DNA of 63,966 nt, filler included, from Craspedostauros australis (taxonomy: Eukaryota), in the NCBI GenBank assembly GCA_030167865.1. It is 6 parts of 6 records of this genome, joined end to end, with 100 filler letters (N's around TTAATTAATTAA, not from the genome) between each part and the next. Parts side by side here need not be neighbours in the genome. Positions count along the whole stretch, not along the records: positions 62,438 to 63,966 come from JALAGF010003478.1; 5 more parts are not named here. One strand, given 5' to 3'. Under the pieces are notes generated by a model. It did no database searches, was not told the origin of the DNA, and saw only the letters and a list, made by a program, of their open reading frames with translations. The stretch's first letter is position 1. Each line of letters begins with the position of its first letter. This document shows positions 15,723-63,966 of this stretch, one piece after another. A program made the position numbers and the translations under genes.

Positions 15723-16468
15723 GATGGCTGTTTCCTTGTGTTAGTTCTTGGAGTGGCTTGCTCTGCTCAGACCGCGCTTCTGCGTTGGTCTTGTCGTGCG
15801 CCTTCCCTCCCCTCTGCCGAATACTGTTGAAGCTTCAGCTCTGCCCTTGCGATGCCGCTTTTCCTAGTCGTATTCGTTCCACGAGATAGTCGTCGACGTT
15901 GAATGCTGTCACTCCAATTGAGTGGTGCCGATCTTGTTGTTGCTCTTGCTTTCTCTGTCTCTCTGGTTGCTGGGCATGTGACCCGTACATGCGGTCCTCT
16001 CTTGCGCGCCTGTGTTCCTCCCTTCTCTCTCTCTTGTTCGCACGAAGAGGTCGGAGAGACGAAAAGGTATCTTGTCACACATCACCGCAAAGATTGTGAT
16101 GTCCGTAACGGCCGTGTCAGACTTGATCCATTCATGCCTTCGAGTCATGAATGATGACGGAAATCGACTCATCGGACTGATGGTTGCCGACTGCCTCCGA
16201 CCGAACAAAGGAGGACAACAAACTTCGTTCTTTTGTTCTGGAGCGTTCTGTTGTCGTTCCCCTCTTCCCCTCTTCTTTGACATTGATGAAGCAGCGACGA
16301 ACCATCGTGGACTTCGAGCGGCAGTCGCGGCAACAACAGCAGCAAGGATCCTGATGCACTGCTGGATGAATGACTCTGTCACAATCAGCAACCGCCAAGG
16401 TCAAACACAAGAGACACGAACAGAATTCCACGACGACGACGACCACCAGCAGAAGCAGAAGCAACAGC

Positions 16469-17863
16469 ATGATGATGAAGAGCCGATGCTCGTTGCCCGC
16501 GACAGCCACAGCTGCAGCCTCCCTGCTGTTGATGGCATCCTTGTGGGGACCAGCACTCGGCCAGGCAACACATCATGCAAAGCAAGAGGAGGTGGTGCTG
16601 TCTGCATTGCCTGCGCACTGGTCAGATCTGGAAGCAGGCGATGGCATGCTGCAGATGAACTCGCCATTGGACACACCCATCATCGGCATTCTCACGCAGC
16701 CGTACATCGGTCGGAATGTGACACAGATCGCTTCTTCGTATCCCAAATGGTTGGAGATGGGTGGTGCGCGCAGCATCGCCATTCCCTACGACGCGACACC
16801 CGAGATGATTGCGGATCTTTACGACATTGTGGACGGCGTCCTCTTTCCTGGTGGTGCCAGCGCGGTGCCGGAATCCGCGAAGATCTTGTGGAAGATGATC
16901 GTGTCTGATGCCAATGACGGCAACGGCGTTGCCCATGGAAGTTCAGCATCGCCCAGCGAGCACCTGCGAGGCACGGATGCAGTATCATCATCATCGTACG
17001 GGTCGTCCGTCGACACAGAAGCATCAACCATGTCCCCTCATGCGTCGCTGCCTGTGTGGGGGACGTGCCTGGGATTCGAATACCTCCTGCAATTGGCAAC
17101 CAACAACTACATTGATATCCTCGAATCTGGCTTCGATTCGCACAACATTAGCCTGCCACTGGAGAATGTCAAGAAGCAGCTGCTGTACCGCAATGCCATC
17201 ACGTACAGCATCGTCACTAGATACAACGTCACAATGAATAGTCACCGTCAGGGTATCTCACCGAAGCGTTTTTTGGACACTCCGGATCTCACCAAGTACT
17301 GGATGATCACATCCACCAGCAAGGACCGGCAGGGACGCGAATTCGTCTCGACCATCGAACCCAACGACCCTCGCAGATTCCCGGTCTATGGCGTTCAATT
17401 CCATCCGGAGAAGAACGCCTTCGAAAACGGAAGGAACAAGGCAGATCCCAGCATTCCCTACCAAGCCATCGATCATTCGGCACGTGGTCTGGCTGCGGTG
17501 ACGATGGAACAGGTGCTGTACTTCACTGGGATTGTGCGCGCACATAAGCATAAACGCCGTCAGCAACGATCGCAAGAAACGTTGGACAAGATCGATCGTC
17601 TACAGCAGACGTCTCCATGGTTGTTCCGTCCCGTGTACCTGTACCCTACGCACCCCGACGTGTACTTTGAACAGATCTACGTCGTGCCGTTGGTAAGTGA
17701 ACTCGAGCAGAAAGCACCACCGAACAACGACGGCAATACTGCTTCCGGGCACACAGCGACTGCGGATATTGTCGCGGCCATGTCGTACTCCGAGATCATC
17801 GCGAGCGCTGCCCAGCGGTTTGTTGATGCTCTGCTCCTTGTGAAGATTCGTGCTGCATACTAG
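16469..17863 (+). CDS. GGH: gamma-glutamyl hydrolase (peptidase C26, class I glutamine amidotransferase fold)
   Basis: PIIGILTQP, SYPKWLEMGGAR, DGVLFPGG, nucleophile PVWGTCLGFE, YGVQFHPEK catalytic His; hydrophobic signal-like segment after MMMKS; upstream ATG 16370 is an alternative start. Confidence 0.92.
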   Translation: MMMKSRCSLPATATAAASLLLMASLWGPALGQATHHAKQEEVVLSALPAHWSDLEAGDGMLQMNSPLDTPIIGILTQPYIGRNVTQIASSYPKWLEMGGARSIAIPYDATPEMIADLYDIVDGVLFPGGASAVPESAKILWKMIVSDANDGNGVAHGSSASPSEHLRGTDAVSSSSYGSSVDTEASTMSPHASLPVWGTCLGFEYLLQLATNNYIDILESGFDSHNISLPLENVKKQLLYRNAITYSIVTRYNVTMNSHRQGISPKRFLDTPDLTKYWMITSTSKDRQGREFVSTIEPNDPRRFPVYGVQFHPEKNAFENGRNKADPSIPYQAIDHSARGLAAVTMEQVLYFTGIVRAHKHKRRQQRSQETLDKIDRLQQTSPWLFRPVYLYPTHPDVYFEQIYVVPLVSELEQKAPPNNDGNTASGHTATADIVAAMSYSEIIASAAQRFVDALLLVKIRAAY

Positions 17864-25668: not shown

Positions 25669-28600
25669 TCAATCAAATTCCAATTTCCGTTTCCCCCCTG
25701 GCCTCTTGTCCTTTGTTGTGGTGCCTCCCATTACGGTAGCAAACAATGATCGTGGTTGCGTGCTCGTCGCTGGCGCTTGTTGCTGCGAAGCTGCCTCGCC
25801 CTCCTGCCTCGCGAAGTGGACTGGGTTGGCGGAATTGCTCAAAGTGTTCAGCGCCGCGATGGCTTCCAGATCATGCGCGCCCATCGATGCCGTTCCCAAC
25901 AACTCGGTGCTCAGCAGACTGTTCGTAGTTCCGTACAGCAAGGAGTTCTTCGAAGGAGAAAGCTGCAAGCCCACTGGCCTGTCAGTCGTCGCCGATGTCG
26001 CGCTGACCTTGTTACCCATACCAAGGTCGCCTGCGTTGATCGAAGACTGCTGCTGCTGATGTGTCTCCACTCCCATGATGGAGGCTTTTGAGTAGTTCGA
26101 CATGTCAAGGATTCCATTCAACCCCTCGCGCAGGATCGAATTGCCGTTCGGTGAGTACAAGCGGAGCGAGGCTGGCGAGTAGTCTGCGGTCGGCGTTAAC
26201 GCGAAACCAGTGCTGTCACCGCGAGCCGTCTTCGAAGGTGACTGAGTTCGTTTGGGTGATGAGAATGCATTCGCGGAGAACAAGTTCTCTGACGGCGTCG
26301 ATGGTGTAGCGAGAGTGGTGGCCGATGGTAGAGCAAAGCTGTTCGTCTGTCGCCGTTGTGGCGAGTCGAAGTGTCGAAACCCAGACCTGCCTCCGATCTT
26401 GTTGGGAAAGGCAGGTGATGTCGGCGTCTGCAATCGCCCGAGCAGACCCATGTCATCATCGTCGAGTGTGGCCTCCACTTCGAGTCTTGACCGTTTGCGT
26501 GCAGCGGTCACAGCGCCGCCGTGAGTTGTCTGGTCGTTATTGCCGCTGTTTCCGGCAAAAGCGGATCGGCTGTTGCTGTTGGCGCGTTCCAGGACATTGG
26601 CCAAGATGCCTTCAGAGCCGTACTTGGACACAGAGAGACCATCGATGGGTGGGAGGTTGGAAAGTCCAGCCGAAGCTTGCAGGTTGGAGAAGTTGAAGCT
26701 CAGGTTGCTGTTTGCCGACTGTCCGAGATCCAGAGCCATTGGCGGCGGGCCACCTGCGATGATGTTCTTGCTGCTAAGGTGGATGTCGTTGTCATCGTCC
26801 AGGAGCTTCTTCATGCAAGACAGCTGCGACAGCTCGGCACCGTCATCAGCAAGCATTTTCTCGATTTCCATCCTGGATCCCTCGGCTGGCGCATCGAAAC
26901 CTAATGGCGCATTTCTGACTGGCGTCGCTAGGTGTGCGGTGACGACTGGCGCAGCAAGCGCTGGCTTTGATGTTCTTTCGACCTTCATTCTCTTGGCTTT
27001 TGGGGCTGCAGTGACAGGCCTTGCAACAACTGATACCATCTTGGCCTTGGTCGTGACCGGCTGTGCCAATGGTACCATGTGCATTGTTGGCCGCTGTATC
27101 GGCGCGGACAGCTTAACTGCGTTCGCAACCCTATGTTTTGCTGCAGCGCCGCGCCTGGCAGGAACGGCTGCGGGAGCCTTCGTGTTTTTGACGATGCGTG
27201 CACTGGAGATCATGTCGACGAACTTGGCTGCTCGTGAGATGCGGCGGACCAGAACCTGATGCCGCTTTCGCAAATGCCCACGATCGCGGTGTGGGATGAG
27301 CCTCGCACCCAGCTCTGCCCACATGTTGCCCATGATGGGAATGGCCTTGAGAAGAGTCAAGTCTTCTTCCAACGACCACCGATGGACATTCAGAATGGCC
27401 GGTGGCGGCACTCGCACCAGTCCCGCTCGTTTCATCGCGTTTTCGTCAATGTCATCCACGGATTCCAACTTCGGTGTCGGCTCGAGCTTCCCGTTGGGAT
27501 CGATCCACACTCCGCGAGCACGGTACAACAAGAGACATAGCTTGGAGTATCGTTGCGATATGCCGTGGATGGTGCGATCTGGCAAAAAGCGATCCATAAT
27601 CAAAGTCCATTGCTTCTCGCCGTAAAGATTGACACCGCGCAGTACGAGGTTGTCTTCGGCGCTTGTGAAAAGGTTCTTGTTGCGCACGAGAAACATTTCT
27701 TCTGGCCTTGTGAGCGGCTTGCCGACAACGTGGTTTGGTCCCAGGAACTCTCTGATATCGCTGAAGTGCACCGAGAGAGGCTTTTGCAACGGCAGGAACG
27801 ACGATTCGATTGTGGCACCTGCCTTGCGCAGCAGGAAGTTGCAAGCTGCGCCAGGAGCTCCGTGAAGGACGCTGGGTTGCTGCAACTTGCGACGTACCGT
27901 GGACAAGGCTGATTTATCCACCGAAGCATCCAAGGTCCGCAACGTGTCAGCCAGATTGGCCAAGCCCGGGATGTTGAACACGGTGCGTTGGCCAGCCAGC
28001 GCAACCCTGTTGCCGGCGTGAGATTGGTTTCCATCGGCCGGTTGCGAGTGTTCTCGCAGGGTTTTGACGAATGCTGCGCGTGTGAGGCGTCGATTCGATG
28101 ACCTCGAGACGTCATGATTACCCCCGTTGTTCGCGTCCGACGCTTGAAACTGTGACAGCAGGCTCCTTCGTGGCTGGCAGTCGCTGGGCATGCGTTCTTC
28201 GGTACCGTGCTCGGCGAATGGTCCAAAACATGTGCGCGTGCTGTGCGGATAATTGTGCTGGTCGCCGTTGCTGTCGTCGTCCTGATCGTCTTCCAGTTGT
28301 ATGGCATACCGAATGGCATCTTTGCGGTGCTGTAATGAGGATAGCATTGAAAGTGTGAGATGAGATATGTATGAATGAGGAATTCTGCGACACAGCACAC
28401 CCAACGACAAAACAACGTACCTGCTCCAAGTCTTGCAACATGCCCACCGCCCCGTCAATGATCTCCGCCAGCTCATCGGCGCTCTCGGCACCGTAGATAC
28501 CATCGACGCTGCCTGGACCGGCCTGATTGAGCTTGAGAGGCGTGTCTGGCTTCTTGCACGATGCCGCATGCGCAGATCGGACGGCAAGAACGGACTGCTG

Positions 28601-30175
28601 CACGAGGAGTTGATAATGCAATCGCATCATTCTCTGCAACGATTGGGCTTGTGTTTGCGTGACCTTGTGACGACCAGCCTGGCGCTTGGCTTCGCGCAGA
28701 GGCGTGAGAGGCGATGCCACCATGGTCGGGGGCAGGTTCGTGGCCTTCCTCGGCGTCGACGCTGTCGAAGGGATTGACATGGTCCTGTTATTGCCTGCTG
28801 CGGTGATCGTGTGCGGTGGCATGTTTGGAGGTCTGGAATGTGGTGGAAATGGTGCAGGCGCTGCTATCGTCCCCAGATTAGGTCTGAGAGCTGCTGCCTT
28901 GGTTGCCAGCTGATTCGCTGCTGTGGTCGCGGAACCTCCAATGGAAGCGTGAGGATCGGCAATGACGGAACCCGCAGGTACACCCACACTGAGATGACGT
29001 TGCGCCTCCACCATCTGTTCCATGCTACTGCTGGTGCCAGGTATGGCCGTTCGGAATGGGTTGTGGGGCATCCCTGCGCCAGCTTGTCCCACCGGAAGCA
29101 TGCCTGATGCTGTTGTCGCCGCTGTTCCCAACTGTGACGATGCCCCTTTCGTGGCCTGGTGGTGCTGCTGGGTGAGGTTGCGCGACGCAGCCCTCGAAGG
29201 TTGTCTCGAGGGCGTGTGCTGTTGTTTGTTAAGCAACGTCGCGACTGCTGCCTCCAGATCCTCCTCCAGCAGACTCCCGAGCTCTTCCTCCAAGTCGTGC
29301 CAAAATGATTCATTCGCTGCTGTGCTGCTCCTTGCACTGCTGACACTCTGCGGCGTCGCGGGTGTTGGGATGGCGGCATGCGATGGTGTCGACGCTACCT
29401 GGTTCGCTTGCGCTGTGATGGTGCTTTTGGTGGTGGAGCTCGTTGCGTTCACAATAACGTTTACACTTCCATTGGCGCTGCTGGCAGTGCTATGAACGAT
29501 ACTGGTGTTGTTGTTGGTGGTGGTGGTGGTGGCGTTGACTGCACTGTGGTGCTGGGGTCGCGGATGCATCGTCGTGACAGGTCCAGTGGCTGTGGGAGAT
29601 ATCGGCAACGTGTGCTGATGTTGCGGCGGCTGCGGGTGTTGATGCGTGGCATGCTCTGCGTTGGAGTTGCCGTGCGCATCAAACGCGAGGTTTCCAGCAT
29701 CATCGTCATCATCTTCGTCATCATCGTCTGCATCATGCTCGTGCTCATCGAGTTGGTACTCCTCGTCATCGTCAATCTGCAGAATGGACTCATCAAAGCC
29801 CAGCGACTGCACGAATTGGACGTACTCCTCTTCCGTGGGCTCCTCCATTGCATTCGGTGTCTGCGCAGCTGGTGTGGTGGACTCCGCCTTCGTTTGAGTC
29901 GAAGACGACTGCGTTTGGCTTGTACTGCGTGCTTGTGTTATGGCCCGTGCTGCTGCTGTGGCTTCTCCTCTCGGCTTTCTCGTGTGCGGAGACGTGGCTG
30001 TTTGCGAGGGAGTCAGCGGGTTTGGGGAGACCTTTGTCGGGTTCAGTGGCTCCGAAGCAGGAGCACTCGCAGCCGCTGTTCTGCTCGCACTGTCATGTCC
30101 CTCAAGGTGATGCTGTGGCTTCGACTGCGCATTCGTGTGATGCTGCTGCTGCTGCTCCTGCTGTTGGCTATCCAT
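25669..30175 (-). CDS. GON4L/DUO3-like Myb/SANT nuclear protein, 2 exons (30175-28421, 28329-25669), ~1471 aa
   Basis: Phase-0 GT-AG intron joins ...QDLEQ to HRKDAIR in frame; Myb-like FTSAEDNLVLRGVNLYGEKQW and RWSLEEDLTLLKAI...W; EEEYVQFV and MRLHYQLLVQ blocks; C-terminal basic KRPGGKRK. Confidence 0.8.
28330..28420 (-). other. 91-nt spliceosomal intron
   Basis: GTACGT donor at 28420, TTACAG acceptor ending at 28330; removal fuses two long ORFs in frame. Confidence 0.85.
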
Positions 30176-32041: not shown

Positions 32042-32141
32042 NNNNNNNNNNNNNNNNNNNNNNNNNNNNNNNNNNNNNNNNNNNNTTAATTAATTAANNN
32101 NNNNNNNNNNNNNNNNNNNNNNNNNNNNNNNNNNNNNNNNN
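32042..32141. other. artificial contig linker
   Basis: 44N-TTAATTAATTAA-44N. Confidence 0.98.
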
Positions 32142-32209: not shown

Positions 32210-35200
32210 TCAACCTCCGACATAAAACGGCCTAACCCGACCCATGATGAGGTCGGTATGTCGATGGAACAAGACAATCGACGTCTGTTTGGTGCACACG
32301 TCCGACGCATTCAGATCCGAAGCCACGTCCGCGATGAGTATGAGATCACGCTCCACCCAGTCGCAGACTGCAAACGTGCGAATGTCGATGTGCCTTGAGT
32401 TCTTCGTGGGCTGGCTGGCATTCGCCATCATCCGAGCTCCCCTGTTATCCTCGTAAAGAAGCGTGGCGTGCTGTTGGGGCACGCCAATTTCGTCGAGGAT
32501 TGAGCGGAGCCAGAGTGCCATCCTGCCAGCATCGCTGGCCGCAACAAACTCGGCCTCAGAGCTGCTGAGAGCAATGGTAGGCTGGATCCGAGTCTTCCAA
32601 GCAATGGCAGCGCCGCCAAAGAGATATACGATGCCAGTGGTCGACCGCCGGTGGCGCGTGTCGGAGCCCCAATCCGCGTCAACGTACCCGTACAAGGACG
32701 ACGCCTGTATGGTGTCTTGGTCAGCCACCTGGTGCGACTTGTCAGCAGAAGGGGACATTCGTCGCGGATCAGGAACCTGAGGTAGCTGCAGAACCGGCTG
32801 TGCACGCCAGTAGGTGATGCCATGTGTGCGAGTAGCAGCCACATACCGAAAGAGATATTTCACAGCCTCGTAGTGGATTCTGGCAGGGTTGATGGAGAAC
32901 TGACTGAGCTTGACAACCGGAAAGGAGATGTCAGGTCTGCATGACACCATCGCCCAGATGAGTTCACCGATAGCCTGCCGATAGCTGAAAAATTCAGACT
33001 GAAGTGCAGCACGCTCGCCATCGTCATCAGGACCCACACCTTGGTCAAGCTTGCGGATATACCCACTGTCAGACCGCATGGGAAGGCGTTGCGATGACCT
33101 CAGGTCACTCCAATCGTGGCGTGCCAGCACTTTGTTGATATACGTAGTGCAATGGACAGTGATGTGATGGCGCCCCTGCGTAAGGTCCAGGCCATTGTAG
33201 TGAGAGAAAATGCCATGACGTGTGATAGGTTGACGCAGCCGTTGATCGAGCATGTCGCAAAAGACTTGGAACGAATGTTCCATTGCCGTCGCAACAGCAA
33301 AGTCGTCCACTTGCCGTAGGACGTAGAGCTTGTGCCCATCAATGGACCCAGTGTATAGGCACGGAGCATGAGTGGTGGCAGCAAACCCCATCTCCTTGAG
33401 CATCCCATTAACGTGGAGACTCCACTGTCGAGGTGCTTCCGGGTGGCCCTGCAAGTTCTTGAGAACAGGCACCACTGCATTGCGGCCAAGGTGAACCCCA
33501 TGTTTGTGTTGCCACCAGCTGCGAAAGGGAGCATCCGCACGCATGTAGTACCGCTGAGCACTGGCGGGTGCCTCTGCAAAAGCATTCGCAACATCCGCAC
33601 CAAAGACAAGGAGCCCTTGAATAGCAGCAATTGCCACCAGGAGCCTGAATTCGGTGAGATCAGGTGTCGCCGCATAAGTATGGCCAAACACTCGGACGCT
33701 GCCGCCGCGGGTGGATCCGTCGCAAACTGCTCGAGCCTTCTTGCGATTGTTCTCGTGCGTTTTGACCACGTAGACCCAGACCCAATTGAAGATGGCAGCA
33801 TCGCGCGGCGCGTCAACAGGAGTCCCAAACATGCCTTGATGATGATACTGATCCAACTGCTTGAACTCAGCCTGTTGCCATTCCTCCCAGTCATCACGTT
33901 GAAGGAGCATTCGGCGGCTCAGCTTGGGAGCTGCATGCACCTGATTCGCCGCAGGCTGCACATCATCAAGAATCCCGCGAATATGCCGGAGCTGATCAAA
34001 GTACAGCTGAGGGACCCCTCGCTGCGACAGCGCATTGCGCACCTCATCAAAGGCGAAGATGGCGTCGCACTGAGTCAAGCCACCCTTACGAGCATTGGCC
34101 ACAGCGAGAGCGAGGTCTTCCATGGTGTGCACCGGGCTGTCATGGAACTGCAGCAGATGCGCATTCCGCATGCGAGTGCGCCAGCGAGGAATGCGCGCAG
34201 CTTTGGACCCTGGACGGCACCGCACCAGCTGCAGACGGCCGCGAGCGTCATCGTAGGAAAACTCCAAGCCAGCCGTGTCATCGTCGCCGGTGATGTCGAT
34301 GGTCTGAGCAAAAGCAAGGTCGAACGGATCACCTGCCATGACAACAATGTCCGAACTGGGCGATGCCGGAATAGAACAGGCAGCAGCCGCAGCATGGATA
34401 TCATCTGTGTCGCGAGTGATGGACTCGATGCACTCAAGAGGTAGACTGGTGCGACCTGGTTCATGTTTGTCCGGTACCTTGACACCATCAGACTCGACTT
34501 CCATCTCGAAGCCAAGCTCGAAGAGCAATTGAGGTCCAGGTGGGCGCTCAGTGGAAGAGAAGTGAGCCTCGTCAAAGACGATGTTGCCCGCAGTCTTGAT
34601 CCGTCCTGAGTCCAGGTCGTAGTACTCATGAAGCGATGGAGTAGCTGTGTGCCCCACAAATATGCCATCATAAGTGTGCACATCCAGCTTGGCTGCGGGA
34701 TACCCAGGTTTGCGAACCGTCACACGTGATCCAAACACCCGCAAGTGACTGACGTCGGGCTTCACACCATGTTGGAGCTCGTAGGGTGTAGCGTCGATGG
34801 ATTTGTGCCACAAGCGGTTCTTGATATACACGGCATGTACAAGAGCTCTGGCCCAGAAGCGCGGATGAAGTCCAGAGGAGTACAGCAGCGCTCGAGTCAT
34901 GACACCAAAGGTGCGGTTGAGACGTTCCACCTTGCCGTTCATCCACGAGCAGCCAGCACCGGTGGGTTCGAGGTTGTACCCAGCAGACTGTACAATCTCT
35001 TGGAACGCACTGGACCGAGCGAGTTCTCCACCGGTGTCGACTCGCACCGCACGGTGACCATCGCGCCGCCCAAAGTCGCGCAAGAGCTTCGAAAAGATGT
35101 CCACAGGCGGCGACCGATCCTTGGTGGGGAATACCCACGTGTACCGAGTGTATGCATCTGTCACCAACAGGTAGGATGTGAATCCCTCCAACGACTGGAC

Positions 35201-36160
35201 CACACGATGATGCTTGGCGCTGCCTCGAGACGAAGACCGACCATATCGGGGACCAGAAGACCGCATGAACCCAAAATCCGCATGGAAACGGGCACCAGCG
35301 ACGGCCACCACATCAGGATCGTTGGGCCCATGCGCTGCCTTTTGCCGCTGCGCCTGACTGCAAGCAGTGCAATGACGCATGGGATGAGCACCTTGGGACA
35401 GCCGCGAAGGTAACCCAGTGCAGTGCTTGGGCAACTGAGCAAGCTGCTGCATGCCAGAATGACCCAGCCGCATATGCCAAAGTTCAGCACGCAGTGCAGG
35501 TGAAGATCCTTGCAGCGCAAACGCCGTGGGAGCACGGACACCACCATCATCGAAGAAGTAGAGGCCATTGTGCTGTCGCATGGTAGCGGACACAGGTGCA
35601 CCAGGTCCACAAAAGGTGATGGTGGCATCGTGCAGACCACAGCTGAGAACAAAGCGCTCGAAGTCGTTGTCAGTCTGTCGGACGACCGCCTGAGGCGAAA
35701 TGAGCGTAGTGGACAGCCCAGGGCAGTACATGGCCTCAACGTGGATGACCCCACCATCATCATTGGGGACGTAGATGACGCCACCCCCAGGGCATGTCAT
35801 GCACGGCGACCCAGCATTGGCAGCGGCGAGCAGCACAGGCTGGGCATACTCCCGGTACCGGCTGATGATGGACCGCTCAGGCGTGGCGCTGACGTTGGCG
35901 CCAACATCGCACTGTCCAGGACCGCCACCAGGATCCCACGCACGCTCAGGACCACTCGAATGCCGGGCAGAGTGGACGCGACACGCATGTGCAATGGCAA
36001 CGCTGGCCATCTTGATTGGCGGAACGCCAGCGTAAGCAGGTATGGTAAGCGCGGACACCCCACCAGAGTGATGGCCTGCATGTGCCCCGCTGCGACGATG
36101 CATGAGAGAACGCCGTTCATCAGGAGATGCATCTACTCCTGACCGGCGGACCAAAAATCC
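32210..36160 (-). CDS. pol: Pol polyprotein (protease, integrase, RT, RNase H), in the -1 frame relative to gag
   Basis: PR CDVGAN; IN HMRLGH...CTAC, HADFG, VDTGGE, NGKVERLNR; RT KARAVCDG, ADVANAF, LRQVDDF; RH YVDADWG, SSEAEF, YEDNRGA, RHIDIR. Confidence 0.95.
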   Translation of the reverse strand, partial: GFLVRRSGVDASPDERRSLMHRRSGAHAGHHSGGVSALTIPAYAGVPPIKMASVAIAHACRVHSARHSSGPERAWDPGGGPGQCDVGANVSATPERSIISRYREYAQPVLLAAANAGSPCMTCPGGGVIYVPNDDGGVIHVEAMYCPGLSTTLISPQAVVRQTDNDFERFVLSCGLHDATITFCGPGAPVSATMRQHNGLYFFDDGGVRAPTAFALQGSSPALRAELWHMRLGHSGMQQLAQLPKHCTGLPSRLSQGAHPMRHCTACSQAQRQKAAHGPNDPDVVAVAGARFHADFGFMRSSGPRYGRSSSRGSAKHHRVVQSLEGFTSYLLVTDAYTRYTWVFPTKDRSPPVDIFSKLLRDFGRRDGHRAVRVDTGGELARSSAFQEIVQSAGYNLEPTGAGCSWMNGKVERLNRTFGVMTRALLYSSGLHPRFWARALVHAVYIKNRLWHKSIDATPYELQHGVKPDVSHLRVFGSRVTVRKPGYPAAKLDVHTYDGIFVGHTATPSLHEYYDLDSGRIKTAGNIVFDEAHFSSTERPPGPQLLFELGFEMEVESDGVKVPDKHEPGRTSLPLECIESITRDTDDIHAAAAACSIPASPSSDIVVMAGDPFDLAFAQTIDITGDDDTAGLEFSYDDARGRLQLVRCRPGSKAARIPRWRTRMRNAHLLQFHDSPVHTMEDLALAVANARKGGLTQCDAIFAFDEVRNALSQRGVPQLYFDQLRHIRGILDDVQPAANQVHAAPKLSRRMLLQRDDWEEWQQAEFKQLDQYHHQGMFGTPVDAPRDAAIFNWVWVYVVKTHENNRKKARAVCDGSTRGGSVRVFGHTYAATPDLTEFRLLVAIAAIQGLLVFGADVANAFAEAPASAQRYYMRADAPFRSWWQHKHGVHLGRNAVVPVLKNLQGHPEAPRQWSLHVNGMLKEMGFAATTHAPCLYTGSIDGHKLYVLRQVDDFAVATAMEHSFQVFCDMLDQRLRQPITRHGIFSHYNGLDLTQGRHHITVHCTTYINKVLARHDWSDLRSSQRLPMRSDSGYIRKLDQGVGPDDDGERAALQSEFFSYRQAIGELIWAMVSCRPDISFPVVKLSQFSINPARIHYEAVKYLFRYVAATRTHGITYWRAQPVLQLPQVPDPRRMSPSADKSHQVADQDTIQASSLYGYVDADWGSDTRHRRSTTGIVYLFGGAAIAWKTRIQPTIALSSSEAEFVAASDAGRMALWLRSILDEIGVPQQHATLLYEDNRGARMMANASQPTKNSRHIDIRTFAVCDWVERDLILIADVASDLNASDVCTKQTSIVLFHRHTDLIMGRVRPFYVGG
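36097..36160 (-). promoter_or_regulatory. putative -1 programmed ribosomal frameshift signal (slippery site plus pseudoknot)
   Basis: G_GAT_TTT in the gag frame, 6-nt spacer, stem GCCG-GTCAGGAG / CTCCTGAT-GAA-CGGC, loop GATGCAT complementary to downstream ATGCATC; same layout at 62786-62849. Confidence 0.8.
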
Positions 36161-37839
36161 AGGTCGAGCGAATGAACGACGTCATCGGACACCAGAAGAT
36201 CCTCAACTCGGGCGTCCTCAACAGTGCCGAAGCGCTGGATGGCACGAGCAGTAGACTTGAACTTGTCAGGGCCAAAGTGTTCGCGGTAGCTCTCGCGAAT
36301 GCGCCGGGCATCGTCAGGATGGTCGGCCACATACTGGATGAGGTGAGCAGTGCGCCCAAACATCTTGCACGTGGCGGCCCGGTGGCCCATAGAGCAGCAC
36401 GCCTCGCAGTATGCACCCGGATCAGGCTTGTAGAACGCATGGCGTGGGCGCTCAGGGCGTTGGCCACGTCCACCATCGCGCGGAGCCCGTTGGGACCGGG
36501 TTTGAGCACGATGAGCAAGTGGTTGCACGCCAGATCCAGGAGGATCCGGAATCTCCTGAGCAAGCTGCTCAATGTGGAGATTGAACGGCAAGGACTTGGG
36601 CGAGGTCACGGAGCGAATGGCCGTGCGGTAGTGATCAAGGGAGTACCCATGAGACCGGAGCTCCTCAAGGAAGAGACGGCTGACCTCCATGTCGGTCACC
36701 GTACGGTGAAAAACGAGTCCTTCCACATGCTGGAACCCAAGGAGGCGAGTGGCAAACTCAGACACAGACCCCTCGAAGGTGGGATGCTTGTGGACCTGAG
36801 ATTGCACCTGGTCGAACGCCCCAGCAAGGATCTTGTGCAGGAACATGTACGCCGACAGCTGGTGGGGAAGAACACCAAAACTGCCAGCATACTTGAGCTG
36901 CAAGCCGGCATGGCTGGAATTGATGACGCCATCAGCTTGAAGCTTGACAACGAGCTTGGAGTTCATCTCGAAGACGCGGCGACCCACCACATTGCCAGGG
37001 ATGACCGACAGATGGGGTCGGAAGAGATCCAAGGGGCAGACGTGGAGATCGACGCAGAGAGCCGCTGCCTGGAACTGAGCATACCACTGGAAGACTCGAT
37101 GCGGATCGTCATCCACAAGCTTCAGCGCCCACTTATCCCAAGTCTGTTGGGCGCCGTACTCAAGGCGATCAAGAGAAGGGCCAATGTGGTAGGTGTCATG
37201 GCGGCGGAGCGACGGACTGGCATTGGCAAGGCCGTAGGGAACTCCAGATGCCGTGATGTAGTCGAAGTCCTCGCCCCCAGCAGCACACCACTCAGGAGCA
37301 TCACCAGCGGCAGGAGACGTCGAAGACTCAGGCACGCGAGGAGCATCCGAGGGCAGCGCGTCGACACCATCAGTAGGCGTAGCAGGTGTCATCTCACCCT
37401 CTAGCACCACTGGGAGCGCGTCACCGCCGTCACGGGCACGGTCATCGCCACTGGCACGGTCGTCGTCAGTAGGAGTAGGCGGAGTGCTTGTCGCAGGGGC
37501 GCGGCGGCCCTGGGATGGAGCGAACGCCTCAGGAATTACACGCTCCTTGCGAAGGAAGGACCGAAACACCCGTGGGGTGATCTCGCCGGCCCAACCATCC
37601 GAATCGGCATGCAGCACGTACCACGCGCGAAGTTTCCACATGCCACGGATGCGAACCCCATCATCGTCGCCCCACGCAAGCATGCGCTGATGGAAGAGGT
37701 CATCGGGGGAGTCGAGAAGATCGCACAGCTCGCCGTCAGTGGCAAGACCAAGGGCCTCGAGCATGGAGTCGAACCAACGCCAACCGAGCCGCTTCGAGAT
37801 GGTGTGAGCATCAGAAAGCACGTCGTCGTCGGAGGTCAT
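36133..37839 (-). CDS. gag: Gag of the Copia element (568 aa)
   Basis: Zinc knuckle CEACCSMGHRAATC (CX2CX4HX4C); lies directly upstream of pol; homologous to the ORF at 62822-63966. Confidence 0.9.
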   Translation of the reverse strand: MTSDDDVLSDAHTISKRLGWRWFDSMLEALGLATDGELCDLLDSPDDLFHQRMLAWGDDDGVRIRGMWKLRAWYVLHADSDGWAGEITPRVFRSFLRKERVIPEAFAPSQGRRAPATSTPPTPTDDDRASGDDRARDGGDALPVVLEGEMTPATPTDGVDALPSDAPRVPESSTSPAAGDAPEWCAAGGEDFDYITASGVPYGLANASPSLRRHDTYHIGPSLDRLEYGAQQTWDKWALKLVDDDPHRVFQWYAQFQAAALCVDLHVCPLDLFRPHLSVIPGNVVGRRVFEMNSKLVVKLQADGVINSSHAGLQLKYAGSFGVLPHQLSAYMFLHKILAGAFDQVQSQVHKHPTFEGSVSEFATRLLGFQHVEGLVFHRTVTDMEVSRLFLEELRSHGYSLDHYRTAIRSVTSPKSLPFNLHIEQLAQEIPDPPGSGVQPLAHRAQTRSQRAPRDGGRGQRPERPRHAFYKPDPGAYCEACCSMGHRAATCKMFGRTAHLIQYVADHPDDARRIRESYREHFGPDKFKSTARAIQRFGTVEDARVEDLLVSDDVVHSLDLDFWSAGQE

Positions 37840-37978
37840 GTTGGAGCGAAGCGAAGGGAAGAGGAGAAGGGGCAGGGAAGAGATACCACTGAGTGTAAGG
37901 GAATGGAACGTCCTTGAACACAAAGCGCGAGGAGAGGAGAGCGCGAAAGGCTATAACCTGTCAGTATCTGAGGGGAAC

Positions 37979-42655: not shown

Positions 42656-42988
42656 TTGTGTGTTCGACCTTTTCAGTCGTATTCATGACTGAAGCTCACC
42701 CTGTTTGACTCACTCGACCAATCAAGAAGTTCTCAAAACATCGATCCGAATCCTCGAGGACGACACGAAACACGATCAGAAATCATTTCGACATCTCCGC
42801 ACACGATCATCGTAGTAGTGCGGGAACAAGCGCTTGAGGGAGGGAGACACACAAAGAGGTCGCCATCTCCGCCCTTGAAGAATAACAGATTGAAGGTGTC
42901 ATCAGGAACCGTCTGTATCCGCGATACCCAACACCATTGCGTCCACAGAAACCACGAGAGAAAACAAAGAAGAGGTAGAGAAGGAAAG

Positions 42989-44428
42989 ATGTTGCTGAGA
43001 GTGCGATCAAACGTTGGCGTGTGGCGCGTGGATGGTCTGGACGAGAAGACGTCGACCATGGAGACGGTGCTGCAGCAGATAGCGCAGACCAGACCTCACG
43101 TGGAGTACGAAGCCTCGGGGATGTGCGAGGATCCTGGCTGCAAGAAGTCTCTGGATACGACCAAGGCCCTCGCAGAGCTGGGGCTGCGCCATGGCAGCAT
43201 GGTGCACTGCCGCGTGGACCCGTCGTCTTGCGCCGAGAACAAGGTGGGCGACGACGATGCCGCAGCCGCAGGTTCCGCAGCCATGGACACAGCAGCCGTA
43301 GCGGAAGAAGCGCCAGGCAGCAGGGCCAACATGAAGCGCGTCATCGACAAGGACGGCTCCATCAAGCTGGTCGCGACGTCCGACCCACGCGCGCCCGCAG
43401 ACGACCGTGGATTCCGAAAAGGCAAGATGGCGCTGCGCGACATGAAGATGGCATGGACGCTCAACGAATTCATGGCTCTGGACGCGCAGTACAACTTCAA
43501 GATCAAGCGGCAGGAGGAGGCCGTCTGCTCCAAGGTCTCGCTGGACACGGCAGCCGTGGGGAACTTCCAGTCGTACGTGCAGCGTTTCGCATTCTCGCGC
43601 AACATGATGGGCTTTCTGTACGGCCGGTTCGAAGAAGACAAGGAGACGGGAAAGCAGAAGACCATCGTCGAGGCGATTTACGAACCGCCGCAGCAGGTCG
43701 ACAAGGAATCGGCGGAGGGATTCATGCTGCTGGAGGACCCGTTGGAGGAGGCGGTCGACAAGATCGCGCACATGTGCGGCATGCGGAAGGTCGGCTGGAT
43801 CCTGGGGCATGAGCCGCGGCACGATCAGGAAGGCCTCGTGCTGACATCGGCGGAGATCCTCATGGCGGCAGAATTTCAACTGGAAGCCGCTGAGGGTGTG
43901 GAGGAGACGCCGTTCTGCACCGTCCGAGTCACGAGAGGGGCAGACGGCAATGTCGCGGCCGACGCCTTCCAAGTCAGCCAGCAATGCATGGCGATGGTCG
44001 CGGAGGAGGCACTGGAGGTGGACGGCTCGGATCTCAAGGCGTGCAAGGTCAACGACACATTCACCGCCATCCAGGAAGGCAAGGAATCCAAGACCGTCGA
44101 CAACAACTTCTTCCTCTGCGTCGTGCCCATCAACCAGCACACGTCAGAAACATTCGTCACGCAATTCCCAAAGATGCACAGAGAGCTCGATGACCGAACA
44201 CCGTCCCACGATGAGCTCAAGCGCCAGCTGTCCAAGAGCGGCTCGTCGGGATGGAACTTCATCGATCTCCTGTCCGACTTCAACCTGCTCATCTACCTCA
44301 GCAAGTTCCTCGATGTGGATGCGGACATGCCCAAGATCACCCAATCGGTCGTCGATCGCGATGTACCGTTGGATGATGGATACAAGATCATCATTGCCAG
44401 CATGGCAGGGATCGATAATGCGTACTAG
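42989..44428 (+). CDS. NPL4: nuclear protein localization 4 homolog (Cdc48/p97 cofactor)
   Basis: N-terminal ubiquitin-like MLLRVRS..GVWRV; MPN-like MGFLYGRF, VEAIYEPPQ, KVGWI, AFQVSQQC, DFNLLIYL; ATG 42989 preferred over the upstream GTG. Confidence 0.9.
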   Translation: MLLRVRSNVGVWRVDGLDEKTSTMETVLQQIAQTRPHVEYEASGMCEDPGCKKSLDTTKALAELGLRHGSMVHCRVDPSSCAENKVGDDDAAAAGSAAMDTAAVAEEAPGSRANMKRVIDKDGSIKLVATSDPRAPADDRGFRKGKMALRDMKMAWTLNEFMALDAQYNFKIKRQEEAVCSKVSLDTAAVGNFQSYVQRFAFSRNMMGFLYGRFEEDKETGKQKTIVEAIYEPPQQVDKESAEGFMLLEDPLEEAVDKIAHMCGMRKVGWILGHEPRHDQEGLVLTSAEILMAAEFQLEAAEGVEETPFCTVRVTRGADGNVAADAFQVSQQCMAMVAEEALEVDGSDLKACKVNDTFTAIQEGKESKTVDNNFFLCVVPINQHTSETFVTQFPKMHRELDDRTPSHDELKRQLSKSGSSGWNFIDLLSDFNLLIYLSKFLDVDADMPKITQSVVDRDVPLDDGYKIIIASMAGIDNAY

Positions 44429-47445: not shown

Positions 47446-48418
47446 CGTGTTGATTCTCCTCTGCTTGCGAAGCTACTCTTGGTTCTATTGGGTTGAGATA
47501 GGCGGATCACAGTGGCCAGAGTGCTGATGATGCTCGAGGCAGTGATGATTTTATGACCGTTCAGTCCACCAAGCAGTCGTTCACGTTGACGCTGACGTTC
47601 ACCTCTTGATGTCTGCGTCGAGCACGTATGGTATGGCGTACCCCAGTTGGTTCCTACTCGTACTGTGGTGCGCGAATGCAGATGCACAGGTATCCAGTGA
47701 TGCAAGCCCTCCGTCACATGCGTTCTTGCGATTCTCCTTCAACTCCTTCCTCTTGTACTCGTTTGCATGCACCGCACGCAGAGCTCGCACCGTAGAGGAC
47801 CCAACCCTTGAAACAACTGCCGGAGCATTCCTTGTGGACGTAACGATCACCTCGCTGCGCATTTATGACGGAGGAGGAAGCAACCCCAGGCACTCCTCCA
47901 CACGGCAGCGCTCTCTTGATCAAATCCGACTCCACACATACTCGTTCTCATGCGAGCCGCTGCTGACGCTTGTCACATCGAGACACCATCCGAGATGTGC
48001 GATCTGCACTTTCACCTCCGGCCGCGCAGAAGGCACCGGCAACAATCATAGATTCAAACGCGGAACGCGACAAAAATCGCGGCGATCTTCGGGAGTTTGA
48101 CGCGTTTTGGGATTGTGGGAAAGACACCTTGGAAATATGGTACCATGACATGGTATCTCGTGAATGTTGCCAAGAAAAGGCCGTACTAAAATTATATACT
48201 GTATTTATGGTATATTTACTACAACAAGATCGAAACACTTCGATGATCGACACGAAAACGCGGAAACAATGACAACACACACTGTGTGGAGGATTGCCAT
48301 GACACAAACCACAAAACAGAGATCATCAAGACCTCCCACAACATTGGGGACATCCACGTCGTCAGGGGTATCACCACCAACAGTCACGCAGACCGAATCG
48401 CACGCTACCTGCGCGACA

Positions 48419-50869
48419 ATGCAGGAAGCATCAAGCGCAGAAAAGCCGGAGAAGGAGAAGGAAGCTCCGAAAGATGAGGAAGGTCTTCTGCTGGAGTACG
48501 ATGTCATCATCTGCGGGACTGGCCTCGTGCAATCCATCCTGGCATCGGCCTTGGCGAGGGCAGGCAAGACTGTGCTGCATTGCGATGCTGCCGATCACTA
48601 CGGTGAATTGGACGCCGTGTGGACGTATCCCTATCTGCACGATTACAACGGCCTTCAAACGAAGACAGTGACGCAGCCATCCACAAGCGTCGGAGATGGT
48701 GATGTTGGTGTCCAAGCGAATCGCGATGCGGCCCAGTTCTCCACAATCGAGCTGGCAATGGATGGAACGAGACAGTCGCTCCAGTTGCATTCGTCAGCCA
48801 CCACAACAACGTTCCCGTTCGTCAAGAATTCAAAGGTCGTGACGCATTATGGGGCTGGAACGGTGGAGAGAGTGGAGAGTGCACCGAGTGATGCTGTGCA
48901 AAAGTTGAGCATCTCCTTGGATGATTGGAGGCTTGAAAATGGATCATCCCCAACACTCCAGGCTTGCGTTGCCGGTGATCCGGATTCGGCCGCTGCAAAT
49001 GGCAGCATAGCGTCCAAACAATCGTTGGAAGCGCGCAAACTCCTCAGCAATCCGCTCATGAGATATTTCGCGCTGGACGCATCGCCCGTGCTCGTCTTCT
49101 CTGCGGGCCGTGCTGTGCAGGGCATGCTGGCAAGCGGCGTTGCGGAGTACTTGGAGTTCAAAGCCTTGCAGGGGCTCTACTGGCTGGATCAGAAGGATGG
49201 TGGCAAGAAGACAGCCAGCAAGCCAGCTGCGTCATCCTCAGAGTACCAAATGTGGCGAGTGCCCTGTTCGAAGAGCGACATCTTCAAGACCAAGCTCTTG
49301 GCGCCGCTTGACAAGCGTCGGTTGATGAAGTTCATCCAGCTCACGATGGATTACGCTACGAGTCAGTCTGTGCAGGAGGAAGTGGCAGCGGCCAAGTCAA
49401 ACGATGATAAAACAGGCACAGCGGATGGATTGCCAGAAGGGGCCAACGGCAGCACTGCCACCGAGGTCGACGAATCGACGGCCCAGCAGGTGCAAAGCCT
49501 CAACGAGCGCCACTTGAATCAAGGCAGATCGTTGGCGCGGCCACAGAACAAGGCGGTTGCCACGGATGAGCTGGAGAAGCTGCAGGGGATGATTGCAGAT
49601 GGGAAGTTGGATTTGGAGACGTACTTGACGCAGCAGAAGCTCTCACCTCGGTTGCGCGGTCTTGTGCGACATGCATTGGCACTGGAAACCACGACGCAGA
49701 GCAAGAGCCTGTTGAACGGGATGAATCAGCTCCGCCATCACATACAGTCGTTGGGGAGGTACGGAACCACGGCATTCCTCGTTCCCATGTATGGCAGCGG
49801 CGAGCTCTCGCAGGCGTTCTGTCGTTCTGCGGCGGTGTTTGGTGCCACGTACTTGTTGCGACGTGCACCGCTCAGGGTCTTGCTTCATAATCAAGCCGAC
49901 GAGGATGGTGCAAAACCAAGTGCCGTGACGAAGAAACGCGTCCATTCTGTTCGCATCAAGAATGACACGTTCGACTTTGACTCGGGCAAACATGTTAGCG
50001 CTGGCGATCCACAGTCTCCAGAACGTGAGCAATCGAAAGATGTTCGCTGCTCGCATGTCATCATCGATCGAGGTTCACTGCAAAGCAACGCATCATCTAC
50101 GAGTGTGCATGGCACTGCAGCTGCATCACAGCGCACATTGCGCCGCATATCCATAGTCAACGGGAAATTGTTGGACGATGACGGCGACGATAGCAAAGAA
50201 CAGCGACACCTGCTGATCATTCCACCAGGCGTGCTGGGAAATCCGTACGCCGTGCACTGCATGCTGATGGATCATTCCGTTCAGGTGGCTCCCGTCGGCT
50301 GCACCGTGATGCACCTTACGACCACCATCGACGTTGCGGCAACTGACGATGCCAGCACTGCAGATGGAGCAGGGAGCGAGGACTCCATGGACAGGATGCT
50401 CGAGAAGGTCACGAAGGTTATTTTGGAGACAAGCAGCAACGCTAGCGGTGAACCGATTGACGAGATCTACCACACGTCATTTAGCTTTGAATCGCCATCA
50501 TCATCCAGCATGGCATCCACTAGGAGAGATGCCAATGATGCAGGCAATGATGCAGGAGAGGAGGAGAACGAAGCCTCAGGTGTTCACTACTGTTCTCGCG
50601 CCACGCAAGCCATCACGGCCGGTGTAGCGTTCGAACAAGCCGAGAAGATCTTCCGAACCATCTGCCCTGGCTTGGAATTTCTAGGTCTTTCGGAGAAGAT
50701 GGACACCATCGTCAAGGAGCGGGTGGGAGATCGGTCGGTGGACGATGATGATGAACGCAACATGCTGGATAGCGCTGTAAGCATGATCGATGAGGCCAAC
50801 AGCAGCAGCAAAACTGAGACTGCGCCCTCGCCAGGCGAGAGCGGTGCTGGTGCAAGCATTGCGGTATGA
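48419..50869 (+). CDS. Rab escort protein (REP, GDI superfamily)
   Basis: YDVIICGTGLVQSILASALARAGKTVLHCD..HYG, YLEFK, VPCSKSDIF, SLGRYG, PMYGSGELSQAFCR..AVFG; long inserts favour REP over GDI; start uncertain. Confidence 0.9.
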   Translation: MQEASSAEKPEKEKEAPKDEEGLLLEYDVIICGTGLVQSILASALARAGKTVLHCDAADHYGELDAVWTYPYLHDYNGLQTKTVTQPSTSVGDGDVGVQANRDAAQFSTIELAMDGTRQSLQLHSSATTTTFPFVKNSKVVTHYGAGTVERVESAPSDAVQKLSISLDDWRLENGSSPTLQACVAGDPDSAAANGSIASKQSLEARKLLSNPLMRYFALDASPVLVFSAGRAVQGMLASGVAEYLEFKALQGLYWLDQKDGGKKTASKPAASSSEYQMWRVPCSKSDIFKTKLLAPLDKRRLMKFIQLTMDYATSQSVQEEVAAAKSNDDKTGTADGLPEGANGSTATEVDESTAQQVQSLNERHLNQGRSLARPQNKAVATDELEKLQGMIADGKLDLETYLTQQKLSPRLRGLVRHALALETTTQSKSLLNGMNQLRHHIQSLGRYGTTAFLVPMYGSGELSQAFCRSAAVFGATYLLRRAPLRVLLHNQADEDGAKPSAVTKKRVHSVRIKNDTFDFDSGKHVSAGDPQSPEREQSKDVRCSHVIIDRGSLQSNASSTSVHGTAAASQRTLRRISIVNGKLLDDDGDDSKEQRHLLIIPPGVLGNPYAVHCMLMDHSVQVAPVGCTVMHLTTTIDVAATDDASTADGAGSEDSMDRMLEKVTKVILETSSNASGEPIDEIYHTSFSFESPSSSSMASTRRDANDAGNDAGEEENEASGVHYCSRATQAITAGVAFEQAEKIFRTICPGLEFLGLSEKMDTIVKERVGDRSVDDDDERNMLDSAVSMIDEANSSSKTETAPSPGESGAGASIAV

Positions 50870-54970: not shown

Positions 54971-55070
54971 NNNNNNNNNNNNNNNNNNNNNNNNNNNNNN
55001 NNNNNNNNNNNNNNTTAATTAATTAANNNNNNNNNNNNNNNNNNNNNNNNNNNNNNNNNNNNNNNNNNNN
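54971..55070. other. artificial contig linker
   Basis: 44N-TTAATTAATTAA-44N. Confidence 0.98.
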
Positions 55071-62337: not shown

Positions 62338-62437
62338 NNNNNNNNNNNNNNNNNNNNNNNNNNNNNNNNNNNNNNNNNNNNTTAATTAATTAANNNNNNN
62401 NNNNNNNNNNNNNNNNNNNNNNNNNNNNNNNNNNNNN
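62338..62437. other. artificial contig linker
   Basis: 44N-TTAATTAATTAA-44N. Confidence 0.98.
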
Positions 62438-62849
62438 AAAGATGCGCGCCGCCACCACATGATATCCGCATGTACCCTTCTCCCGGGCACTCCATAGCAG
62501 GCGAAGACGAGTCCGCTGCCTCAAGGCTGGAAGGAGTAGTAAACGCGGTATAGTCACTGAGGAGACGCGCATGTGGAGTCGCGCAAACGTTGGCACCTAG
62601 ATCACACTGACCGTGAATTCGTTGGCGCCATTCGCTGTCGCGAGACCCTGCAAGTGCATTTGCACGGAGCGGGACCGTCGTTGACGTCATGAAACGATCC
62701 GGCTCTGTGAACTGCACTTGGGTTGAGGCAGTTTGTAGCGGAGATGCAACGCTGGTGTGCGTGCCTGTTTGCATCCCGCATGGGCGAGCAACGGGTAGTA
62801 GCCGTTCACCGGAGAGCTGCTCTACTTCCGGCCGGCAAGAACAAAATCC
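62438..62849 (-). CDS. pol: Pol N-terminus (protease), -1 frame, truncated by contig edge
   Basis: Frame is open from GGA TTT TGT... through GQCDLGANVCAT. Confidence 0.85.
62786..62849 (-). promoter_or_regulatory. putative -1 frameshift signal, second copy
   Basis: G_GAT_TTT, 6-nt spacer, GCCG-GCCGGA / TCCGGT-GAA-CGGC stem, loop GAGCA complementary to downstream TGCTC. Confidence 0.8.
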
Positions 62850-63966
62850 TGGAAAAGGATCTGCGCTGTACGCTCGTCGTCGCTGCTGTTGTCGCCGTCA
62901 TCGCTCAATGAGTCACGTCCATGATGGACAAGAGCGACAGCCCTGGCAACTGTGCTTGCACGCTCGCTGGAGTAGACCTCCTTGTACGTCTTGAGAACCT
63001 TCGCAGCAAGGTCAGGTTCGGACTCGCGGAGCTCAGCGAAACGCAGATCGCGTGCCCATGGAAGGCAGCTGCGCGCATGATGTCCCTTGCGGTGGCACGC
63101 GGAGCAGAATGCATCCTTGTCCGGTTGATAAAACTCGGACCGCTTGCGCTCGCCACGCTTGCCATCGCCACCAGACTTCCCAGACGAACGTGTTTGCACA
63201 CGGTGGCCAATATTGGACGTTGAGGCAGTGGGATCTCCTCTGATGGTACGGGCAAGAGCCGACACGTGTAGGTGAGGGGGCACGCGCTTGTTGCCTGGCA
63301 CCAGGGACAGAGACGTGATGTGGTGTTCCACAGGCATGTGGTGAGAGCGAAGACCTTCGAGGAATCGGCGGGATAGCTCCACATCAGTGATCGTGCGACG
63401 GTGAACGACGCTCTCGGTTTGTTGGAATTCCAACAACGCCGTGGCGAACTTGATGACGTCTTGCGAATCGCCATACTCAGGCGCTTGGCTCACGGTGTTG
63501 GCAACACGCATGTATGCGTCCGAGAGCACTTGATGAAGGAAAAGGAAGGATGACAGATGGTGTGGCGACATGCCGAAAGTCCCAGAATAGAATAGGGAGA
63601 TGGCAGGGTCGTCCAGATCGAGGATGTCCTTCTGTTGCAACTTCTTGTTCAGCCACTCGCCGGCACGGATGACACGTTCACGTGGAGCGTTGCGCGGAAT
63701 GATGGAGCACTGCGGACTGAACGCGGAAAGCGGACAGATGTGGATGTCCACACCAGCAGCCTCGGCTTGGAGTTGTGTGTACCACTTGAGTACTCCAGCG
63801 GGCGCGTCCCCAGCAAGCTTCAGCTCCCAGCGCTGCCAGTATCCAATGGCGGCATACGAGGGCTCTGTGACCATGGGAACCTCCTTGAAGTGGAAATGAG
63901 GGAGGACTGCAGGGTTGTTGCGGGCCATGGCGTAGGTAAGGCCAGAGCCGGTGATGAAGTCGACGG
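62822..63966 (-). CDS. gag: Gag, 5'-truncated by the window end
   Basis: Zinc knuckle CSACHRKGHHARSC; frame is open upstream of ATG 63928 (VDFITGSGLTYA aligns with FDYITASGVPYG of element 1). Confidence 0.9.
   Translation of the reverse strand, partial: VDFITGSGLTYAMARNNPAVLPHFHFKEVPMVTEPSYAAIGYWQRWELKLAGDAPAGVLKWYTQLQAEAAGVDIHICPLSAFSPQCSIIPRNAPRERVIRAGEWLNKKLQQKDILDLDDPAISLFYSGTFGMSPHHLSSFLFLHQVLSDAYMRVANTVSQAPEYGDSQDVIKFATALLEFQQTESVVHRRTITDVELSRRFLEGLRSHHMPVEHHITSLSLVPGNKRVPPHLHVSALARTIRGDPTASTSNIGHRVQTRSSGKSGGDGKRGERKRSEFYQPDKDAFCSACHRKGHHARSCLPWARDLRFAELRESEPDLAAKVLKTYKEVYSSERASTVARAVALVHHGRDSLSDDGDNSSDDERTAQILFQDFVLAGRK

Follow-up and report, generated by a model that had tools for sequence, protein, structure and literature searches.

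The end of the window, the 63,966-nt stretch of Craspedostauros australis DNA that was analyzed as a whole, carries two overlapping open frames of a putative retroelement copy, E2. Both are read from the minus strand. The gag frame (62822..63964) has 380 codons, is open to the window end, and closes with a TAG at 62824-62822. Its product contains a CCHC knuckle-like C..C....H....C. The pol frame (62438..62897) lies at -1, is open from its upstream stop to the contig end, and encodes a protease-like D-L-G-A at 62603-62592. A further copy, E1, is also found on the minus strand. It is made up of a gag frame of 605 codons, stop to stop (36133..37950), and a pol frame of 1323 codons (32210..36181), again at -1 relative to gag. 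The downstream frame overlaps the upstream frame in both copies, opening at 62897 in E2 and at 36181 in E1. The gag/pol overlap measures 76 nt in E2 and 49 nt in E1, and the heptamer GGATTTT is within both.

Assembly context

The window is composed of six small contigs chained together, and neighborhood across the joiners is therefore meaningless. The joiners are all-frame stop linkers with the layout N44-TTAATTAATTAA-N44 and are located at 6516-6615, 13508-13607, 32042-32141, 54971-55070, and 62338-62437. The last of these, which has no strand and is outside the element, ends the E2 contig about 400 nt past the shift site. Because of this joiner, the loss of E2 pol similarity is attributed to the end of the assembly. 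Truncation of E2 was considered and rejected, as the similarity stops at the contig joiner. The E1 contig ends 70 nt beyond the pol stop, at the joiner at 32042-32141.

Contigs 1 (1-6515) and 2 (6616-13507) are 99.4-99.8% identical over about 6.5 kb, and both share 3501 nt (100% identity) with the reversed start of contig 3 (13608-17108). This overlap points to assembly redundancy or haplotigs. These contigs code for a DUF7640-repeat protein and a pseudouridine synthase-like protein. Long open frames at 42689-44428, 48164-50869, 25669-28626, and 16370-17863 were assigned to NPL4, GDP dissociation inhibitor, Myb, and glutamine amidotransferase/peptidase C26. Since such long uninterrupted frames carry ordinary eukaryotic domains, the contigs come from an intron-poor eukaryote.

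Identity of the elements

The pol product of E1 contains the Pfam domains gag_pre-integrs (residues 229-277), rve (335-403), SH3_retrovirus (471-541), and RVT_2 (789-1026). RVT_2 and SH3_retrovirus score above the Pfam cut-offs; gag_pre-integrs (28.3 bits) and rve (19 bits) score below them. A protease-like D-V-G-A region is located near residue 90. E1 has the PR-IN-RT order that characterizes Ty1/copia elements, and the protease-like start is readable in E2. No Pfam family was found at E 0.01 for the Gag of E1 or of E2. An alignment of 20 Gag sequences shows little or no variation at C286, C289, H294, and C299, which identifies a CCHC knuckle.

E1 and E2 have a Gag identity of 38% over 344 aa. 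Their pol N-termini align over 151 columns (142 E1 residues, 138 E2 residues) with 30% identity and have the protease-like motif GQCD(V/L)GANV in common. The alignment of GQCDLGANV (E2) with GQCDVGANV (E1) upholds the original prediction that the -1 frame is open into the protease. The two copies had also been described as independent, with divergent Gag proteins. This agrees with the low Gag identity and with their location on separate contigs, which have no nucleotide-level match at E 1e-20. Since the contigs lack such a match, E1 and E2 are regarded as old, independent copies and not as a recent duplication. Both loci are probably the places where gag meets pol in Ty1/copia-like LTR retrotransposons of a single family, and the 64-nt cassette would be their programmed -1 frameshift signal.

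Layout of the cassette

Near the end of gag, the E2 minus strand reads CAG GAT TTT GTT CTT GCC GGC CGG AAG TAG. The slippery heptamer G_GAU_UUU (62843..62849; this and all following E2 and E1 parts on the minus strand) is in the gag phase, as CAG GAT TTT. It is followed by the 6-nt spacer GTTCTT (62837..62842), which differs from the TGGTCC of E1. The 5' strand of stem 1 (62825..62836) is composed of a GCCG base and the upper part GCCGGAAG. Its 3' strand (62801..62815) consists of TCTCCGGT, a GAA bulge, and CGGC. Stem 1 of E2 is thus predicted to have 12 bp with the GAA bulge, and the gag TAG sits in its loop. The 5' strand of the predicted stem 2, GAGCAGC (62816..62822), is within this loop, and its first G is the final base of the gag TAG. 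A linker of 8 nt (loop 3, 62793..62800) lies between stem 1 and the 3' strand of stem 2, GTTGCTC (62786..62792); its length is the same in E1. The loop-tail helix of E2 has 7 bp, GAGCAGC/GUUGCUC, with one G.U included. In full, positions 62849-62786 read GGATTTT GTTCTT GCCG GCCGGAAG TAGAGCAGC TCTCCGGT GAA CGGC TACTACCC GTTGCTC.

The E1 cassette is located at 36097..36160, with the heptamer GGATTTT at 36160-36154 and the TAG at 36135-36133. Stem 1 is formed by 36147-36136 and 36126-36112, and stem 2 would be formed by 36133-36127 and 36103-36097. Positions 36160-36097 read GGATTTT TGGTCC GCCG GTCAGGAG TAGATGCAT CTCCTGAT GAA CGGC GTTCTCTC ATGCATC, and the heptamer context is G_GAU_UUU_UGG. The first ATG of the E1 pol frame falls within the stem 2 tail, and no conserved start codon is common to the pol frames of E1 and E2. 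An ATGCAT palindrome is present in both stem 2 strands of E1 (36127-36132 and 36098-36103) and in neither strand of E2.

The sequence quoted in the original prediction matches the window exactly. The gapless alignment of the copies bears out the heptamer, phase, 6-nt spacer, GCCG/CGGC base, GAA bulge, and stop position that they were said to share. The predicted upper stem of E2, GCCGGA/TCCGGT, was reproduced, as was the loop-tail pairing GAGCA/TGCTC, which extends to 7 bp.

The heptamer alone is not distinctive. GGATTTT is found at 7 sites in the window, where 6.4 are expected, and the other sites considered (4207, 11199, 35273, 21977, and 54465) are not cassettes. A stem-1 covariance model matches only E1 and E2, and the next best match has 13 bits (E 0.15). 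A search of the whole window against Rfam gave no match at the gathering score, and no match at E<=10 was obtained in 62700-62900.

Covariation between the two copies

The 80-nt stretches of E1 and E2 align without gaps and are identical in 44 of 80 columns. The identical columns are clustered in the heptamer, GCCGG, TAGA, and TGAACGGC; the spacer, upper stem, loop, and linker differ. In the structure model, stem 1 pairs columns 14-25 with 35-42 and 46-49, leaving the GAA bulge at 43-45, and stem 2 pairs columns 28-34 with 58-64. All 19 pairs are formed in E1 and 18 of 19 in E2, that is, 37 of 38 pair cells (97.4%). The exception is column pair 24-36, where a one-sided change leaves an unpaired A x C in the upper stem of E2. 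Seven pairs are changed on both sides, three are changed on one side, and nine are unchanged. The double changes are divided between stem 1 (3 pairs) and stem 2 (4 pairs), so the claim of compensatory changes in both helices stands. Stem 2 is paired at 7 of 7 positions in both copies, with four pairs double-changed and one single-changed.

Several controls were applied to this result. When the 3' partners were slid by 1-3 columns, 29-55% of cells were paired and 0-2 double changes were seen, versus 97.4% and 7 for the true register. In a shuffle control, 2 of 500 arrangements reached the observed value, a figure that is near the floor of the control and is not a probability, because a two-row shuffle only swaps partners. 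For an empirical null, the two gag genes were codon-aligned (48% nucleotide identity), and the MFE structure of every window of one copy was transplanted onto the other. The transplanted structures keep 45-46% of their pairs on average. None of 1445 windows of 65 nt with at least 15 pairs keeps at least 85% of its pairs (maximum 82%), and none of 590 windows of 40 nt with at least 11 pairs does so. Among small structures of 8-9 pairs, 14 of 1471 windows keep at least 85%. At least three double changes are found in 120 of 787 gag windows; double-change counts alone do not discriminate at such divergence, so it is the share of retained pairs that carries the weight.

Translated in the pol frame, the region of the stem 2 tail gives RRSLMHRR in one copy and RLLPVARP in the other. 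Because these overlying peptides differ, protein constraint does not explain the pairing of stem 2. No DNA of relatives was confirmed in the contigs scanned, and the covariation thus rests on two DNA sequences, from which it is suggestive and short of statistically decisive.

Predicted folding

In both copies, MFE folding yields stem 1, whose ensemble frequency is 0.68-0.75. The 36-nt hairpin of E1 has a predicted energy of -16.4 kcal/mol (z -3.6), and 0 of 200 shuffles are as good. That of E2 has -16.1 kcal/mol (z -2.0), with 8 of 200 shuffles as good. The 81-nt folds have z values of +0.14 (E1) and -0.53 (E2), unexceptional for their G+C-rich composition. The 51-nt stretch of E2 has a z of -0.54, and 56 of 200 shuffles are as good.

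The pairing of the loop was assessed by a duplex search of 9 nt of loop against the 61 nt after stem 1. The best loop-to-downstream duplex is at the same offset in both copies, with -9.3 kcal/mol in E1 and -10.7 kcal/mol in E2. Shuffles give a duplex as good anywhere in the 61 nt in 41 of 1000 cases for E1 and 14 of 1000 for E2. In the MFE fold of E2, stem 1 gains three pairs and a bulged C. Because the extended stem takes bases that stem 2 needs, the hairpin and the pseudoknot are expected to compete in E2.

Relatives of the Gag proteins

A search of 1.84 billion proteins with a profile of the two Gag C-terminal halves retrieved 70 cluster representatives (E<=0.001). The C-termini of these proteins gave an indirect, protein-level version of the wider alignment that the original prediction named as a test. 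The relatives are clusters at 50% identity and are available as proteins only. Fused gag-pol relatives that keep the motif, named in the original prediction as evidence against it, were looked for, and 0 of 70 representatives is a Gag-Pol fusion. In 22 of 70, the C-terminus consists of DF followed by 0-8 residues, and one more has NF at this place. As background, 2.2% of the 10-residue windows inside these proteins contain DF. The residue before DF allows an NNG codon in 21 of 22 cases; the background, taken from the preceding 39 positions, is 68%, with 32% of residues unable to do so. At the protein level, this fits G_GAU_UUU in the relatives, and it is no proof. The DF tail could be a protein-level motif in itself.

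The tail of E1 is DFWSAGQE and that of E2 is DFVLAGRK. The five closest representatives (P0001-P0004 and P0012) read DF-xx-AG-(Q/H), and together with E1 and E2 the group reads DF-xx-AG-(Q/R/H). In this DFxxAG group, the two spacer residues vary freely, and all 7 of 7 sequences imply GCNGGNC. The position of the stop is not strictly fixed in the closest five, since it is found 5 to 7 codons after DF. Three other relatives have the ending DFxSPG.

Other endings were also observed. In eleven relatives (one with NF), a single codon separates DF from the stop, and in two more the protein ends with DF itself; together they are P0005-P0011, P0020, P0022, P0024, P0031, P0036, and P0070. A further 17 of 70, mostly more distant, have no DF tail, and in every one of them the stop follows a final ...E (P0014, P0019, P0029, P0034, P0039-P0041, P0047, P0055, P0056, P0058, P0059, and P0061-P0065). 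The ...E ending may mark a sister group with its own conserved context for the stop or for recoding.

One close relative stems from a marine protist transcriptome, which indicates that the Gag family is transcribed somewhere. Others come from ENA, JGI, and Logan assemblies. The Atlas gave a weak lead to Bacillariophyta (score 0.90). A word-indexed protein search with E1 Gag 230-605 and E1 Pol 1-330 gave no match at E 0.001.

DNA of the relatives was sought in three sets of contigs. With the two Gag alignments, 158 and 27 pattern stretches were found in metagenome contigs and 79 and 45 in viral contigs, none of which was confirmed as the DNA of relatives. A Gag alignment gave 24 pattern stretches in genome contigs, and the E1 pol query gave 2 stretches in viral contigs; again, 0 were confirmed. 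The cassette pattern itself was found at four loci in viral contigs of 29-186 kb (L001-L004). These were rejected as chance because the contigs have no gag/pol similarity (tblastn, E 1).

A tentative reading, held at slightly less than even weight, is that a large, mostly undescribed clade of marine protist copia-like elements uses G_GAU_UUU throughout, with at least three downstream architectures: the DFxxAG pseudoknot, DFxSPG, and a stop one codon after the shift site. If this is true, a single non-classical heptamer has stayed constant through exchanges of its stimulator. The clade would then be a natural series for asking what kind of stimulator a heptamer with a weak P site requires.

Proposed mechanism and alternative readings

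The usual spacer between a slippery site and its structure is about 5-9 nt. In E1 and E2, the 6-nt spacer is followed by the predicted stem 1 and stem 2. The heptamer does not follow the classical X_XXY_YYZ pattern: only the A-site codon of G_GAU_UUU is slippery, and P-site re-pairing from GAU to GGA is poor. It would nevertheless work like a -1 site, because it is documented as a non-classical one in two papers (PMC5009743, PMC11050907).

A ribosome translating gag would arrive at G_GAU_UUU with GAU in the P site and UUU in the A site. Six nucleotides downstream, it would meet an H-type pseudoknot. Stem 1 of this pseudoknot would be made up of 4 bp, the GAA bulge, and 6-8 bp, and loop 1 would have 2-4 nt. 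The 7 bp of stem 2 would join the hairpin loop, beginning with the final base of the gag stop, to a segment that lies 8 nt past stem 1. The resistance of the structure would cause a fraction of ribosomes to slip by -1, with UUU re-pairing to UUU in the A site and GAU to GGA in the P site. Slipped ribosomes would read on through protease, integrase, and reverse transcriptase and generate a Gag-Pol fusion. The remaining ribosomes would end at the UAG about 15 nt downstream and release Gag alone, and the share of slippage would set the Gag:Gag-Pol ratio. We infer the slippage, its efficiency, and the formation of stem 2. Transcriptional slippage on the T run is thought unlikely, because the run has only 4-5 T.

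It is possible that the -1 signal is real and that its stimulator is the bulged hairpin alone, with stem 2 coincidental or transient. Stem 1 by itself is the stable, dominant predicted fold (ensemble frequency 0.68-0.75), its MFE extension in E2 occupies bases that stem 2 would use, and the stem 2 duplexes are modest, being equaled somewhere in the 61 nt by 41 and 14 of 1000 shuffles. Against this, stem 2 is paired at 7 of 7 positions in both copies and at the same offset after an 8-nt linker, four of its pairs have changed on both sides and one on one side, and the pol-frame peptide over it is not conserved. A stimulator reduced to stem 1 is accordingly judged rather improbable. A function other than frameshifting is given still less weight and is considered very unlikely. 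The structure would then serve packaging, dimerization, or a pause in RT or termination, and Pol would be made via splicing or internal initiation. Some copia-type elements do use splicing rather than recoding, and the AUGCAU palindrome means that the E1 loop could in principle pair with the same loop of a second RNA. The loop of E2 is not palindromic, however. In addition, the structure begins exactly 6 nt past an in-phase heptamer inside a short gag/pol overlap in both copies, the first pol ATG of E1 falls within the tail of stem 2, and the copies have no conserved start in common.

The reading with the smallest probability, which is disfavored and hardly credible, holds that there is no selected signal. 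E1 and E2 would then be two decayed, out-of-frame copies whose motifs were inherited or arose by chance. The chance frequency of the heptamer (7 found, 6.4 expected) and the fact that E2 is not traceable beyond 62438 are compatible with it. Decay is at odds with four reading frames that are all open where readable. Nucleotide identity elsewhere is about 48%, yet there is no indel in the cassette and 18-19 of 19 pairs hold. Among the 70 Gag relatives, moreover, 22 have retained the DF tail and none is fused. With good confidence, then, the E1/E2 cassette is a real, selected -1 frameshift cassette, from which the frameshifting itself is inferred.

Significance

Frameshifting at -1 at the gag-pol junction of a retroelement is already known, and the E1/E2 cassette is ordinary in kind. 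General knowledge of frameshifting is unchanged by it. The additions are modest: a virus-type G_GAU_UUU in an element of copia order, a compact, bulged predicted pseudoknot of 51 nt that encloses a stop codon, and the conservation of a DF tail in a broad marine clade. The cassette is a testable -1 signal for a protist copia-like family and comes with a natural pair of compensatory variants. For annotators, the gag and pol of E1/E2-type elements should be treated as one expression unit and not as broken genes. The conserved DF tail is a protein-level marker for finding this Gag family in metagenomes and transcriptomes.

Comparison with known systems

The cassette resembles the gag-pol -1 signals of LTR retrotransposons and retroviruses in its -1 pol overlap, in a shift site few codons before the gag stop, and in a 6-nt spacer followed by a stable predicted structure. 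It differs from them in its heptamer, which is G_GAU_UUU and not a classical X_XXY_YYZ. According to one review, a 2003 survey found pol in the -1 frame in 28 of 51 animal LTR elements, and the yeast elements Ty1-Ty4 use +1 frameshifting (PMC5009743). Unlike Ty1, the element described here, with its Ty1/copia order in E1, has pol in -1.

The closest parallels to the heptamer are viral. In the same review, G_GAU_UUU_UGG_UAG is given as the -1 site that pea enation mosaic virus 2 uses, and the stop close by is said to be important (PMC5009743). An abstract on Fusarium oxysporum virus 1 calls G_GAU_UUU a typical -1 slippery motif (PMC11050907). The heptamer of pea enation mosaic virus 2 is identical to that of E1 and E2 (PMC5009743), and E1 also has G_GAU_UUU_UGG. 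The stop of this virus, as given in the review, is one codon after the shift site, as it is in 11 of 22 DF-tailed Gag relatives. In E1 and E2, by contrast, the stop is about 5 codons past the heptamer and inside the loop of the stimulator. Unlike the G_GAU_UUU sites of plus-strand and dsRNA viruses, that of E1 and E2 is in a DNA-integrated retroelement. The stimulator in E1 and E2 is a predicted local pseudoknot. A search of a literature collection for G_GAU_UUU in a retrotransposon or gag context listed no description of such an element, and an earlier tabulation is possible.

The predicted fold can be compared with the pseudoknot of the coronavirus IBV type. In this type, stem 1 is about 11-12 bp long and stem 2 is 6-7 bp long; loop 1 is short, and loop 3 may shrink to about 8 nt. 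In the cassette, stem 1 would have 12 bp (with the bulge), loop 1 would have 2-4 nt, stem 2 would have 7 bp, and loop 3 would have 8 nt. The GAA bulge and the stop codon inside the knot set the cassette apart from the IBV type, and there is no sequence relation between them. The diatom CoDi elements (Maumus et al.) likewise have the Ty1/copia domain order and a marine protist setting.
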